Part shown: positions 17,795 to 62,507 of the stretch, piece by piece | Layout of the letters: every line of letters begins with the position of its first letter | Numbering within the stretch: position 1 is the first letter of the stretch | Assembly (NCBI GenBank): GCA_951406725.2 | Contig: OX597838.1 | Location: forward strand, 35,712,001-35,776,000 | DNA length: 64,000 nucleotides | From: Octopus vulgaris | Taxonomy: Eukaryota | Reading direction: 5' to 3' | The notes under the pieces: model-generated | Told to the model about the DNA's origin: nothing | Database searches by the model: none | Seen by the model: only the letters and a program-made list of their open reading frames with translations | Translations under genes and position numbers: made by a program

Positions 17795-18195
17795 GCCACG
17801 ACAACATCGTTTTCTTCATTTGCCGCAAAGGCATTTTTTTCCAAATACGCCAGCTAAGCTAAGTTGAACTGTCTAAAGTCGTAAGACACCCGCTGTTTTT
17901 GTCCTGTTATTACTATTATTGTTTTTTGTATTCATATTTGTGTGGCATCGTCCATTTTTCTGTCCTTGTTTCGTATACATTCGATCTTTTTTCCAAGAAA
18001 TCTAATGCTCGTAGCTTAATTTTTCCTTGGGGCTGGCCGGATTGGAGCGATCTCAAGATTAATCAGCCGAAATTGTGAGGATGATCTGGTTCTTGACTGA
18101 AGATTAGAGGCTTCAAATGACCCGTCCGTTTTTTGTGTCGTCTCTTTGAGTGTTTTGCGTTCTTGTCCCATTTTGTATTTTTATATCTATTTTTC
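17795..18195 (+). mobile_element. Family G element beside (TA)n (possible PLE pseudo-LTR remnant)
   Basis: 18020-18145 is homologous to the reverse complement of about 44293-44420 (GGCTGGC..GATT...CAGCCGAAAT...GACTGAAGA...AATGACCCGT). Confidence 0.5.
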
Positions 18196-22424: not shown

Positions 22425-22767
22425 AGAAAAAAAAACAAGGAGAGATATATATCTTTGGGCAGCCATCACAGTATGGTTAAGAATCTTGCTTTGCAACTCT
22501 GTAGTTTTGGGTTCAATTCTACTGAATGGTACTTTGGGCAAGTGTCTTCTACTACATTTCTGGGTCGATCAATGCTTTGTAACTGTATTTGGTAGGTGAA
22601 AATAGCATGGAGGCCTATCATATATATATATATATATATATACATACGTATGTGTGCGTTTGTATATACCCACTTATATACTTTCAAACATATAAGGGAT
22701 GGCTATAAGAGGACATCCGACTCACTAGAAAGAGCAGTTAAACTCCAAACCACTAATGATTTTGATT

Positions 22768-22950
22768 TTGATTTTTCCAGTTTCAGCTAAAGAGCTGTGG
22801 CCATGCTGGGGCACCGCCATTTGGTTTGCTACACAGGTTTACCTCACGGATGCTTTTTAGCAAACGCCATCTGATGCATGAGAGAGTTCGATGCAGCTGC
22901 CCTCATCTGCACCTCCTGCCGTGAAGTTGGTTCATCCGGGACTGACACCT
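22768..22950 (-). mobile_element. Retroposon fragment sharing the family A-type 3' tail
   Basis: Reverse complement ends ATGGCGGTGCCCCAGCATGGCCACAGCTCTTTAGCTGAAAC; the same tail variant occurs at 23817-23870 (+). Confidence 0.6.
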
Positions 22951-23001
22951 GATAGTTGTAATTCTGAAATGGAAAGAGAAATAAAAACGTTTACCCTCTC
23001 G

Positions 23002-23089
23002 TTTCTGGACTATGCATAGTTTCGGCAATCTTTTGTAATTAAATTAAATTAAACTTATTTAACATTGGCGTTGCACTCATCAGCAGAAA
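23002..23089 (-). ncRNA. Type I hammerhead ribozyme, intact core
   Basis: Minus strand TTTCTG-CTGATGA-GTGCAA..(AT-rich loop)..TTGCC-GAAA-CTATGCATAG-TC-CAGAAA: perfect 6-bp stem I, canonical CUGAUGA and GAAA boxes, palindromic stem III, GUC cleavage triplet. Confidence 0.85.
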
Positions 23090-23369
23090 AGCCAAGGACT
23101 ACCATATATTCACGAGGCGATAACTAGCATGCCTCGAGTCTATATGCTATAAATTTTCAAAATCCACCGCATTCGCGCGTTTTTCTCAGCAGTAAATATA
23201 AACTGCCAATTTAATTTCAAAATTAGCCAAAAAATCATTAATTAATTAATAAATTTTAGGGTAGCAAAAAATTCTAGAAAAATTCCCTGCTACCAGCGGT
23301 CAAGTGAGAAAGAAAAAATAGTCAATAGACTATATAATATACACTTATAATACCCACATATATATATTC

Positions 23370-23772
23370 ATTTTTTATTCTTTTATTTGTTTCCGTAATA
23401 TGACTGCATTCATGCCGGAACACTGCCTTTAGTTGAACAAATTGATCCCAGGAGTTATTCTTTGTAAGCCCAGTACTTATTCTATCTGTCTCTTTTGCTG
23501 AACTGCTAAGTTATGGGGACACAAACACACCAACATCAGTTGTTAAGCGATGGTTTTGGTGACAAACACAGACACAAATACATAGATACACACACACACA
23601 CATACACACACATATGATGGGCTTCTTTCAGTTTCTGCCTGCCAAATCCACTCACAAGGGTTTGGTCAGCTCGAGGCTCTAGAAGAAGACACTTGCCCAA
23701 GGTACCATGCAGTGAGATTGAACCTAGAAGCATGTAGTTGGGAAGCAAGCTTCTTACCACACAGCCACTCCT
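23370..23772 (-). mobile_element. SINE family A, diverged
   Basis: Reverse complement colinear with family A. Confidence 0.85.
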
Positions 23773-30593: not shown

Positions 30594-30722
30594 AGTTCAG
30601 CAAAAATTTAGATTCAAATGAATATGGTATTTTATTTTGATGCACCAGAATTCTGTATGGTGTTATCCATAAAAATCCGTGGGGTGATTATAATCAAAAT
30701 AAGCAACAAGAATGACTCCGGT

Positions 30723-30812
30723 ATTTGGTACGATCGTTTCGTACTACATCATTTTATTAAATGTTGTAGGTATCACAACAGTTTTGAAATGCTGAGCACT
30801 CATCAGCCAATT
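30723..30812 (-). ncRNA. Type I hammerhead ribozyme in the inverted pLTR copy
   Basis: Minus strand AATTGG-CTGATGA-GTGCT..long hairpin..AGTAC-GAAAC-GATC-GTA-CCAAAT. Confidence 0.8.
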
Positions 30813-30961
30813 ATAGAGGTTTTCCATTAATACAAAAATTTTCATATCAAGTAGCAACATTATAGAGAAGGTAGATACATAGACAAAGATGTGGATTTGA
30901 ATTTTAAGAACACTTGAGGTAGTGGAGCCCATCAACTGACTGACTAAGATTCAGTTGTTCC

Positions 30962-31231
30962 TCTTTTAGGCTCAAACATAAGGCAGGTTGCACAACATTA
31001 TCTAGTAAAATTTGGGAACTAAAAACAAATAATATAGAATTCAACCCAAAATGGGATATACTTAGAAGAGTGCAACCTTATAGAAATAGTAGGGATGGTT
31101 ATCAGCTTTGTTCTATGGAAACTTATGAAATTTTGAAACATCAGAGTAATACAAATCTGTTGAATAATTGTTTGGAGCTGGGAGGATCTTGTATACATCG
31201 TACGACCCGAACATTTAAATACTTTAAATAA
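30962..31231 (+). pseudogene. C-terminal fragment of a PLE RT/GIY-YIG endonuclease ORF (89 codons then stop, 5'-truncated)
   Basis: Manual translation SFRLKHKAGCTTLSSKIWELKTNNIEFNPKWDILRRVQPYRNSRDGYQLCSMETYEILKHQSNTNLLNNCLELGGSCIHRTTRTFKYFK* resembles, from memory, the PLE C-terminal pattern T.LS..IW.LK...W.I....PY...C.LC..E...I...LLN...E....C.H. Not in the supplied ORF track. Confidence 0.8.
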
Positions 31232-31275
31232 TAATTTTGTGAATATTCCTATATTTTTCAAATTTTAATTCTTTA

Positions 31276-31770
31276 TAACCAAATAAGAAGGAATATACCA
31301 TACTAGCTTTCAATTTAACATTTATAGGTGACTAAAATAACTTCACTGCAAACTTAAAATTGAATTCTTCTTTTTTCTAAAATTAAACTGTATGAATCTA
31401 AACAGTTGGAATCCTAAATAGTATGAATCCCAAATAGTACGAATACTAAATAGTATGAATCCTATGTCCCTAAGGAAACTATTCGGTTCACCTTGATTAT
31501 CTCACTTCCATTTCTTAATATAGACTTAGTCTAAGATATCTTTACAAAATATATTTAACCAAATAGGAACGAATATACCATAGTGGTTTTAGTTTAACAC
31601 CCATAAATGATTAAAAAACTTCATTGCAAACTTAGAATTAAATTCTTCTTTTTATAATGTTCTCCAATACTAAGTAGTATTAATCCTATGTCCCTAGGGA
31701 AACTATTTGGTTCATCTTGATTATCTCACTCCAATTTCTTAATATATAATTAACCTAAGATATTTTTACC
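31276..31770 (+). repeat. Two diverged tandem direct repeats in the PLE 3' region
   Basis: Units start TAACCAAATAAGAAGGAATATACCATA (31276) and TAACCAAATAGGAACGAATATACCATA (31556); both contain AATCCTATGTCCCTA.GGAAACTATT.GGTTCA.CTTGATTATCTCAC. Confidence 0.8.
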
Positions 31771-32560
31771 TAACTAATTAACCTTTATCCACAGGTAGTA
31801 AATTTTATTTCCAATAGATCCTATATTTTAGTTCATTAATATCAACTCACTATCCATGAAATCTGAATAATTTACTCTTCTAAATTATCTCTCTTCATAT
31901 TATAAAATATCGCCTTCTACTAAACCTATGAATATCTTCCTTCTTTGATTTTCCCTCTTCCATCTTTCTTAGTATATATTTTGACCCCTAATATGTTCAC
32001 TTGATTAATAAGGCTTTTCCCCCCAGTTAATAAGTACTATGCCTACTCATAATAAGTGACAGTTTCTTTCTCCAAATTTGAATAAATTTTAGATTTACAT
32101 TTTTTCCTTTATTCTAACGTGTCAAAGTACTTGGAACTTATAGACCAACTGTTGTGATGATGTGCATAGGGTTTGTAAGGTCTCTGCATTCTCTGTGAAT
32201 GTTATTGTGACCATTTGACATTGACCTAGTTCTCCTAACGCTGAATCTGTTCATCAAATAGCAGTAATTGGCATTTAGTTGTGACAATGCAGTCTTCTAC
32301 ATAAATTCCTTATTTGGAGCTATGACATCCCCTTTACCCCTTTTCTATACTTAGAAAATCTTTATTGTCTCCTTTCATTTGTTCTTCCCTCTCAGAACCT
32401 TACAGTAGTCTGGAACAACTGAATCTTAGTCAGTCAGTTGATGGGCTCCATTACCTCAAATGTTCTTAAAACTTAAATCCACATCTTTGTCTATATATCT
32501 ACCTTCTCTATAATGTTGCCACTTGATATGAACATTTTTGTATTAATGTAAAACCTCTAT

Positions 32561-32651
32561 AATTGGCTGATGAGTGCTCAGCATTTTAAAACTGTTGTAA
32601 TAATTACAACACTTAATAAAATGATGTAGCACGAAACGATCGTACCAAATT
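32561..32651 (+). ncRNA. Type I hammerhead ribozyme in the 3' pLTR
   Basis: AATTGG-CTGATGA(32567-32573)-GTGCT...AGCAC-GAAAC(32633-32637)-GATC-GTA-CCAAATT; stem II extended by CATTTTA/TAAAATG and TGTTGTAA/TTACAACA; predicted cleavage after GUA (32644). Confidence 0.85.
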
Positions 32652-32697
32652 ACCGGAGTCATTCTTGTTGCTTATTTTGAGTATATATATATATATA

Positions 32698-35229: not shown

Positions 35230-35680
35230 TTAGTTAGTTAGTTAATTTTTTGGCTCAAAAAGCAAAAAGCAAGGCCATGTAGGGGGACATGGAGTTATGT
35301 TCAGGGTGGTGTGCATGTAAAGAGTTCAGGCCACTTGTGGTCAAGGGAGACTTTGAACCGAGCGGTCATCGGCATCTTCACCATCTCATCCGGCAACTTA
35401 TTCCATGGATCCGCAACCCGGACAGAGAAAGCCCCTCTCCTTCGATTAAGATGAAATCATCGCAGATACAGCTTTTCGGAATGACCCCGCAGCCGACGCT
35501 CTGGAGTAGGAGTGAAGAACAGCTCTTTCGAGAGGTTACACTTTCCGCTTATGATGTTGTGAGTAAGAATGAGATCTAGAGAATAAAGGTCGAGCGTCTT
35601 CAGCCTTTCTTCATAAGACAAATTCTTGAGACCAAGAACCATACGGGTAGCCAGCTTCTGGACTCTTTCAAGATGCTTGG
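35230..35680 (-). mobile_element. CR1/L2-group LINE 3' end (ORF2 C-terminus, 3' UTR, (AACT)n tail)
   Basis: HLERVQKLATRMVLGLKNLSYEERLKTLDLYSL...RLRGHSEKLYLR*; the frame continues past the TGA as FHLNRRRGAFSVRVADPWNKLPDEMVKMPMTARFKVSLDHKW, a classic CR1-type C-terminus. TTAGTTAGTTAG at 35230 is the tail on the minus strand. Confidence 0.88.
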
Positions 35681-35783
35681 TTGTATATTTCAATAGAGAT
35701 ATGACAACAAAAGGGTTGAATAATTAAAAAAAGGCAATGTGTGATGTTGTTCTAGATATATTCCTAAAAATATAAAATAGCCA

Positions 35784-52934: not shown

Positions 52935-55020
<2,086 letters not shown>

Positions 55021-55049
55021 GTGTGTGTGTGTGTACGAACACACAAATG

Positions 55050-55210
55050 GTACATTGTCTGAGATGATTCTGTAGAAAGAGCCTGGTTTTGTACCTTCCA
55101 AAAGATAGGAAGACCTGCCTGAAGTGGTTTTTAGAATCTCTTTGTTTAGCCTACAGTCATTAGCAATGATGCTACCAAGGTGTCTGAATTGGAAGGATGT
55201 GACTGAATAG
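55050..55210 (-). mobile_element. RTE-clade LINE RT fragment
   Basis: VTSFQFRHLGSIIANDCRLNKEILK resembles the RTE motif F.YLGS.I..D..LD.EI. Confidence 0.65.
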
Positions 55211-55379
55211 GTCAACGGATGTGCAGCAGGGCAGTACAACAAACCGTTGGAGATTTCTGGTTAGTAATTATGAGCCACATTGTACCTGGAAACTGTGGGG
55301 CCTGCTGAGATGATGGCTCCTAATTCTTCAGTCTTTGGTACCTGAGAAAATTCACACACACACACACACACACACACAC

Positions 55380-62049: not shown

Positions 62050-62325
62050 CATTGGTAAAAGTCAGGTTCCTTTGTGCCGTCATCAGCATCTTTAGATAAA
62101 AAGGTTATTATTAGGGTTGAGGTAAGGCAGGCACAAACTTCGAGGAACACTTTAGGAAGAGAGCAGCAGAGAACAAAATCCTCAATACAAAGCATAAAAT
62201 CCGAAGGTATAAAGAATACGTCCTCAGAATATTGTTTTATGGTGTTGAAACTTGGACTATATACTTAATGCTCATAAAAAAATCCGAATTCTTTCCATTT
62301 GCAGTGATTCTAGAAGATCTGAAAT
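62050..62325 (+). mobile_element. Degraded RTE-clade LINE RT fragment
   Basis: SASLDKKVIIRV.. then, in another frame, KHKIRRYKEYVLRILFYGVETWTIY, matching the RTE motif K...Y...VL..LLYG.ETWT. Confidence 0.75.
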
Positions 62326-62507
62326 ATGCATGCTTGTGCATGCATGTGCACAAACACACATGGCACACACACACACACATACAGACACACACACACACAC
62401 ATCTTAAATGCTGAAACTGCAAATTCCTAGGTCTGGATAACCAATGAGATGAAAACTACTTGGTTGTCCCATTTGTATTCATTTTCCCCTTTTTGTGCTT
62501 TTTCTCA

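Follow-up and report, generated by a model that had tools for sequence, protein, structure and literature searches.

The window, that is, the whole 64,000-nt stretch of DNA that was analysed, is animal-like DNA with dense microsatellites and interspersed repeats of a kind that suggests a cephalopod, probably an octopus, and it contains a hammerhead ribozyme motif on the minus strand of positions 23002–23089. The question raised by this locus is whether the motif is a chance arrangement, a ribozyme that serves a host gene or a component of a mobile element, and to which kind of element it would then belong.

The hammerhead motif at 23002–23089

The motif is a type I hammerhead with an intact core, around which three helices can be drawn and which is open at stem I. 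All requirements of the hammerhead core (CUGANGA, GAAA, NUH, G10.1-C11.1 and A15.1-U16.1) are present. An earlier sequence-only reading of this DNA had named stems I–III, the two boxes and the GUC triplet on the minus strand; all of these parts lie where that reading placed them, and its expected cut agrees with ours. The motif is composed of the following elements.

23002–23089, minus strand: whole hammerhead motif (motif check, Rfam, shuffles and pair list)
23084–23089, minus strand: 5′ arm of stem I, pairing with 23002–23007
23002–23007, minus strand: 3′ arm of stem I; a variant at 23003 changes U-A to U.G
23077–23083, minus strand: core box C3–A9, CUGAUGA; N7 at 23079 is U or C
23071–23076, minus strand: 5′ arm of stem II with a bulged U at 23075 (pair list)
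23029–23070, minus strand: AT-rich loop 2 with a length of 42 nt, of which 6 vary in the variant rows listed
23020–23028, minus strand: 3′ arm of stem II and GAAA box (23023–23020); no variants among the rows listed
23008–23020, minus strand: palindromic stem III and GUC triplet, with C17 at 23008

Stem I consists of six Watson-Crick pairs, with a mean pairing probability of 0.97 in the fold prediction for the isolated motif. Stem II comprises 5 bp, namely G23076–C23024 (G10.1-C11.1), followed after the bulged U23075 by the pairs of 23074–23071 with 23025–23028. The 12-nt palindrome of stem III, which had been described as a stem of that length, is indeed present, but within one molecule it forms 4 bp closed by a 4-nt loop, and the full 12 bp require two copies to pair with each other. 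The energy computed for this intermolecular duplex is −17.3 kcal/mol. In the predicted fold stem I is closed by an internal loop; loop 2 is long and variable, and no contact between loops 1 and 2 was identified. Cleavage is expected between 23008 and 23007, 56 nt before the 3′ end of the repeat unit described below, a position predicted from established hammerhead chemistry.

A descriptor scan of both strands detected three hammerhead loci in the window: 23002–23089 and two PLE copies at 30806 (minus strand) and 32567 (plus strand). In the chance control, which comprised 150 dinucleotide shuffles of the window in 2-kb blocks, loose settings gave 0.04 loci per window, and the stem lengths of the 23002–23089 hit gave none (n = 150). 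The Rfam model Hammerhead_1 (RF00163) matches precisely 23002–23089 on the minus strand, one of six Rfam matches in 22700–23600. Its score is 18.7 bits (E 0.18 on 901 nt), below the gathering score of 34 bits; the 45-position model treats the 42-nt loop as an insertion. The 150 listed matches of the whole-window Rfam scan (509 in total) all belong to microRNA families on microsatellites. Searches with exact or gapped hammerhead patterns gave no match in collections of metagenome, viral and genome contigs, and the isolated hammerhead region folds no better than its shuffles (z 0.75). A chance arrangement within AT-rich DNA could be argued from the sub-threshold Rfam score and from this unremarkable fold, but it is extremely improbable given that none of the 150 shuffled windows yielded a comparable match and that, in the variant rows listed, family variation within the core and stems is confined to N7, one wobble and the bulge.

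Further boxes of the CTGA-N-GA type occur in short repeat fragments at 18097 (plus strand), 44339 (minus strand) and 3226 (plus strand). None passed the descriptor; they resemble minimal hammerheads, of additional families, in a decayed state. A CTGAAGA box at 35603 (minus strand) was weighed as a possible third hammerhead but dropped, as it failed the descriptor and sits in a coding remnant that we take to be LINE-like (Pfam gave no match).

Extent, copies and predicted folding of the repeat unit

The hammerhead lies within a non-coding repeat unit that is wedged between two other repeats.

22952–23343, minus strand: whole repeat unit, about 390 bp, non-coding (depth cliff and loose ends; ends approximate)
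22765–22951, no strand assigned: separate, very high-copy repeat, cut where the unit starts; 22765–22821 matches other copies in the window
23359–23600, no strand assigned: another high-copy interspersed repeat with about 20 matches elsewhere in the window

The unit has a GC content of 0.32 and a length of 374–392 bp, and carries one type I hammerhead; its longest stop-free frame is 33 codons. Data on the family were taken from contigs of public sequencing runs, with 22950–23345 as the query. Part of the query is held by 20 of the 24 runs listed, from four organism codes and 11 studies (best word share, 0.28). Contigs of four runs were aligned on 22825–23358 at 80% likeness, with less similar contigs excluded: X1 (organism A), X14 (organism A, putative RNA), X5 (organism C) and X7 (organism D). 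The aligned records, flanking repeat included, numbered 1324, 156, 2249 and 805 in the four runs. The unit was found in each of them, and thus in three coded organisms, with all 30 bins covered every time. Its summed depth reaches from hundreds to more than 100,000 in the DNA-type runs and about 20–130 in X14. Although summed depth does not translate into a number of copies, the contigs listed include many whose individual depth is just 5–20, so the unit is clearly multi-copy. The description of the ribozyme as stand-alone therefore holds for the window, where 22822–23358 has no second copy, and not for the family, of which the locus is one of many copies.

The ends of the unit are marked by loose ends at 22952 and 23343, which match the bounds of about 22955–23345 given in the sequence-only reading. 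At the 5′ end, the summed depth in X1/X14/X5/X7 is 13309/50/55200/2856 in bin 23329–46 and 68/4.8/264/14 in bin 23347–58, a drop after 23346 of about 200-fold in the DNA-type runs and 10-fold in X14. Among the loose ends listed, seven contigs each in X1 and X5 run past 23343, with an agreement of 0.74 and 0.67, compared with 0.77–0.89 at 22942, where the neighboring repeat is cut off. The loose ends past 23343 are few and agree poorly, which is the pattern that a true end of the unit would give. They share their first five letters in two organisms (up to 30 letters are shown per end), and the 5′ end of the family may extend a few bases past 23343. In two deep contigs (X5 record 17, depth 449, and X1 record 2, depth 186), the match ends at 23204 and is followed by 36 further letters. 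More broadly, high-depth contigs from three runs (X1, X5 and X7), together with a single one from X14, match 23005–23204 at about 85% and then continue for 36–309 letters, which in the X14 contig resemble a microsatellite flank. Contigs that diverge at 23204 possibly represent another subfamily whose 5′ part is different, or an autonomous partner. Together, the stops at 23204 and the similar letters past 23343 suggest that there may be a relative of greater length or with another head, possibly an autonomous one.

Both flanks are themselves repetitive, as 22765–22821 and 23359–23600 match many other repeats in the window. The depth of the 22825–22950 repeat is up to 1e6 in DNA runs, and 10–57 contigs per run continue past 22942 with mutually similar letters. 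Next to the unit end, this flanking repeat contains four extra letters (22943–22946) relative to its continuation in public contigs. In X1, four contigs link the 3′ end of the unit to letters like those of 22734–22760, another point of the flanking repeat, which may reflect abundance or a target preference. Target-site duplications are absent at the 22952–23343 copy; a tail of 30–40 bp is an optional trait of PLE derivatives. A tRNA-derived SINE was considered and rejected because the unit has no tRNA-like head: ARAGORN found no tRNA gene in the window, and none of the six Rfam matches in 22700–23600 is of tRNA type.

The contigs also contain joints between parts of the unit, 11 of which were listed, each from one contig per run: three strand changes, six internal deletions, one 49-nt step back and one tandem joint. 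Joints at a likeness below 95 may arise from repeats. The strand-changing joints connect 22993/23334 (X1), 22996/23275 and 23174/23342 (both X5). They are 5′-to-5′ (head-to-head), an orientation deduced from the lengths of the sides (38, 45 and 31) and from record 23. In two of the three, a short inverted fragment from the 3′ end abuts a longer copy, and in two of them the joint lies no more than 10 nt from the 5′ end of the unit. An inverted, 5′-truncated partner is typical of PLE insertions according to the Figure 2 legend of PMC8557442. The tandem joint comes from X14, where one contig with a depth of 17 joins 23325 to 22952 head-to-tail with a period of 374, any letters between the two sides of this junction not included. 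The 374-nt period leaves out 18 nt of the 5′ end of the unit. Among the joints listed for the three DNA-type runs, no head-to-tail joint of unit length is present.

Variation across copies was evaluated on 40 of the 79 rows of the variant table; 35 variant positions fall in the unit. The only substitution in these rows at the 40 constrained core and stem positions is at 23003, where stem I is still paired as U.G. The sole core position variable in these rows is 23079, with A>G (plus strand) in all three DNA-type runs. This position corresponds to N7, which is free in the hammerhead numbering. The bulge of stem II is removed by a deletion at 23075 with a depth of 551/1133 in X5 and 30/103 in X7 and 0 in X1 and X14. 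Disruptive substitutions affect 0 of 40 constrained positions and 33 of 346 other positions in these rows (Fisher p 0.023; p 0.11 when the 23003 wobble is counted as a variant), and no two-sided compensatory changes occur in the stems. Core and stems are thus kept in related copies, as far as the rows listed go, which the sequence-only reading had made a touchstone of its claim. The pattern is modest evidence that the ribozyme core and stems may be under selection across copies.

Fold prediction gave a less favorable picture of the copy in the window. The active ribozyme fold lies 6.0 kcal/mol above the predicted minimum for the isolated motif, 8–10 kcal/mol above it in longer contexts and 9.7 kcal/mol above it in the whole unit, and the predicted minimum fold contains stem I alone of the three hammerhead stems. 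Deletion of the bulge, which is a natural allele, shrinks the gap to 0.6 kcal/mol. The majority alleles of the loop were tried as a rescue of the misfolding of 23002–23089 and rejected, as the gap remains 4.8 kcal/mol. Two elements upstream of the ribozyme contribute to the structure predicted for the unit.

23208–23230, minus strand: upstream arm pairing with 23022–23045, with pair probabilities of 0.56–0.9 in the linear unit
23260–23294, minus strand: 16-bp hairpin whose G.U pairs form solely on the hammerhead strand

The 23208–23230 and 23022–23045 segments contain an AT-rich, 15-nt inverted repeat that is 93% complementary. The upstream arm covers loop 2, the 3′ arm of stem II and part of the GAAA box, and in the full-length RNA it is predicted to prevent the active fold from forming. 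The fold z of the unit is −2.7 for the minus strand compared with −1.3 for the plus strand, and −2.5 for the circularized unit. In these models the active fold of the copy at 23002–23089 is predicted to be disfavored. Among the members of the family, this copy is probably one of the older ones, with weak cleavage and no host function.

Origin of the unit

A Hydra-type PLE remnant (30689–32685) is located 7 kb from the unit. It has two inverted, non-coding terminal repeats of 274 bp that are 94% alike, and a 1.2-kb AT-rich 3′ region with two internal duplications (31276–31375/31556–31653 and 31442–31560/31666–31783). Each terminal repeat bears a hammerhead whose stem II is a rod of about 59 nt (z −3.6); in both hammerhead families of the window 53–59 nt lie between the core halves. 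The GIY-YIG-like C-terminal frame at 30944–31228, between the inverted repeats, returned 723 homologues at E ≤0.001 in a HMMER search; a word-index protein search with this 95-aa frame against longer proteins scored none of 24 candidates. Weak GIY-YIG matches, below the Pfam cut-off, were obtained for 3 of the 10 homologues scanned. By eye, two long homologues combine RT motifs with a GIY-YIG-like domain on their C-terminal side, an arrangement also seen in Hydra-clade sequences of PMC8557442. A likely helper class for the unit, a Hydra-type PLE of the 30944–31228 kind, is present in the genome. The unit itself gives no meaningful alignment with the neighboring terminal repeats and is unrelated to them outside the core, which bears out the proposal of a second hammerhead-bearing family; because of this lack of alignment, the partner of the unit would belong to another, unseen family. 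The 3′ end of the unit differs from that of the neighboring PLE and, by eye, from that of Hydra-1_Obim, and short motifs from the 3′ half of the ribozyme are absent from the consensus set in the accessible material of PMC8557442.

On balance, we regard the unit as probably a non-autonomous derivative of a PLE, i.e. a dispersed, retrozyme-like monomer, and its parent as probably a PLE of the Hydra clade. The observations underlying this assignment are the motif, the multi-copy state, the sharp ends, the lack of coding capacity and the inverted and tandem joints. The sequence-only reading had suggested a solo pLTR or a retrozyme-like unit, and in the public contigs the non-coding unit of about 390 bp behaves in this way. 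In the proposed mechanism, the unit would be transcribed on the hammerhead strand, and its RNA would be copied into new sites by the reverse transcriptase and endonuclease of an autonomous PLE. The PLE protein would bind the unit RNA, nick AT-rich DNA and begin reverse transcription close to the 3′ end, at one fixed position (22952). In vitro, an Anolis PLE protein nicks AT-rich DNA and reverse transcribes from fixed internal RNA sites; it also assists the ribozyme, which is dispensable for insertion in that system (PMC11167929, as far as available). Priming on both strands could produce the head-to-head inverted, 5′-truncated partners. The hammerhead would release the unit RNA from transcripts that read through it or contain it in tandem, probably cleaving as a dimer via the palindromic stem III, as was proposed for PLE hammerheads (PMC4209133, available part), or with the help of protein. 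Rare tandem copies would give rise to monomers of about 374 nt that could circularize, in the manner of the circles formed from tandem copies of animal retrozymes (PMC7229834, available part).

The unit may instead be the 5′-truncated 3′ end (pLTR or 3′ UTR) of an autonomous Hydra-type PLE, with an ordinary pLTR ribozyme, which we consider a tentative alternative of some weight. Most PLE insertions are 5′-truncated, and most hammerheads in PLE-rich genomes are single remnants (PMC4209133 and bioRxiv 10.64898/2026.07.22.740005, available parts). The 274-bp terminal repeats of the neighboring PLE carry the same type of hammerhead with a long stem II, and the first letters shared past 23343, as well as the second head past 23204, would fit a longer element. 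However, depth at the 5′ end (23311–23346) reaches that at the 3′ end in four of four runs. The few contigs that continue past 23343 (seven per run among the loose ends listed) agree poorly, unlike those at the 22942 cut of the flanking repeat, and 23343 is no more than 18 nt away from the tandem joint and from two of the three inversions. No high-agreement shared sequence that would continue into RT or GIY-YIG was found past 23343 among the loose ends listed (up to 30 letters each).

A more elaborate possibility, which appears doubtful, is that the unit is a dispersed-monomer retrozyme derived from a 374-nt circular RNA whose ribozyme is locked off by 23208–23230. It would belong to a class with a long loop 2 that is shared with the Hydra-type PLEs of this genome and is missed by standard descriptors and Rfam thresholds. 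To our knowledge, such a lock-off in circular RNA has been described in plant retrozymes and viroids, and not for most animal retrozymes. If this were the case, ribozyme counts and the claim that Naiad PLEs are hammerhead-less would need revisiting.

A classical non-LTR retrozyme, whose tandem arrays give rise to abundant circular RNA of about 374 nt and of which the copy in the window would be a stray monomer, is unlikely. The period-374 junction in X14 does have a depth of 17 against about 20–130 for the unit, the size and the GC content of 0.32 are as in mussel retrozymes, and the fold is self-paired, with a z of −2.5 for the circle. On the other hand, no unit-length tandem joint was listed in the DNA-type runs, although rarer inversions were, the ends of the monomers appear to be fixed and not permuted, and the 374-nt unit lacks the 18 nt of the 5′ end.

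Conserved intronic hammerheads exist in amniotes, and the intact core and preferred triplet of 23002–23089 would be compatible with a host-selected intronic or regulatory ribozyme of that kind. The sequence-only reading had accordingly raised the prospect of an intronic self-cleaving site. This proposal is very improbable and was abandoned: the motif belongs to a dispersed, multi-copy repeat wedged between two other repeats, none of the 37 candidate frames from the window reached the Pfam cut-off as a host exon, which left no host gene or strand assigned, none of the contigs listed spans the locus plus its flanks, and the active fold of this copy is predicted to be disfavored. Just downstream of the ribozyme, at 22990–22962 on the minus strand, there is a pyrimidine tract ending in CAG that resembles a splice acceptor; terminal repeats of PLEs can contain introns. 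Broken frames are located at 35304–35723 (minus strand), 54961–55260 (minus strand) and 62059–62411 (plus strand). They have no Pfam match at the cut-off and are presumably C-terminal remnants of LINE reverse transcriptases.

Relation to known systems

Hammerheads in PLE ends and in animal repeats of 150–450 bp are already well described, and the unit indicates neither a new mechanism nor a host regulatory role. It extends the known association of PLEs, hammerheads and retrozymes in animals by a family that is apparently uncatalogued. In the literature available, no description of this family of about 390 bp or of a cephalopod retrozyme was found, and the words 'ribozyme' and 'hammerhead' are absent from the main text of the octopus repeat papers checked. 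The family may already have an entry, as an unclassified repeat, in Repbase, in Dfam or in the repeat library of PMC13282606. The usual detection settings are too strict for both hammerhead families of the window, so motifs like these may be undercounted. As a short unit with natural bulged and unbulged alleles, it offers a compact test substrate for monomer, dimer or protein-dependent cutting.

The following comparisons refer to the available parts of the sources cited. The unit resembles the Hydra-clade PLE hammerheads (PMC8557442, File S2) in being of type I with a stem I of 4–7 bp and a self-complementary stem III of 3–4 bp, and it shares with Hydra-clade PLEs a hammerhead near the 3′ end, AT-rich targets and inverted, 5′-truncated partners. 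One published Hydra-clade hammerhead has the same first 11 letters as both families in the window. However, loop 2 is 42 nt long in the unit and 3–10 nt in the Hydra-clade motifs, stem II of the unit is bulged, no ORF is attached to the unit, and its sequence differs from that of Hydra-1_Obim (PMC8557442). Loops 2 of 29–35 nt occur in two spike-moss PLE-X motifs, which are marked as deviant (PMC8557442). Long distances between the core halves are also known from the 'HHR_half_core' Naiad PLEs, two cephalopod families among them, where the halves are 35–50 nt apart, compared with 53 nt in the unit (PMC8557442, File S1), and in both cases the distant halves escape standard descriptors. The Naiad half-cores, which were compared by short-motif look-ups alone, are depicted without stems and belong to PLEs with an N-terminal endonuclease, whereas three stems can be drawn for the unit (PMC8557442).

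With the minimal and variant hammerheads of PLEs (Cervera and de la Pena 2014, PMC4209133) the unit shares a palindromic stem III suited to dimer cleavage and the occurrence as mostly single, dispersed motifs from which low activity is expected alone. A bulge in helix II is likewise found in the Drosophila virilis Penelope motif (PMC4209133). Compared with these hammerheads, the unit has a complete stem I of 6 bp, a longer stem III and a far larger loop 2 (PMC4209133).

The class of retrozymes is defined by tandem arrays and circular RNA, while the unit is a monomer in the window and has one tandem contig in one of four runs; the strict retrozyme label is therefore withheld. In other respects the similarity to animal non-LTR retrozymes is extensive. 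Like the unit, these are non-coding elements of 150–450 bp with low GC content, one type I hammerhead and self-paired RNA, and they co-occur with PLEs (PMC7229834; bioRxiv 10.64898/2026.07.22.740005). The retrozymes of a mollusc, the mussel, measure 350–390 bp and are devoid of loop-loop contacts (Cervera and de la Pena 2020, PMC7229834). Animal retrozymes, monomers included, have been linked to or derived from the ends of PLEs, and monomers are common in some of their families (Li, Clavereau and Pollet 2026, bioRxiv 10.64898/2026.07.22.740005).
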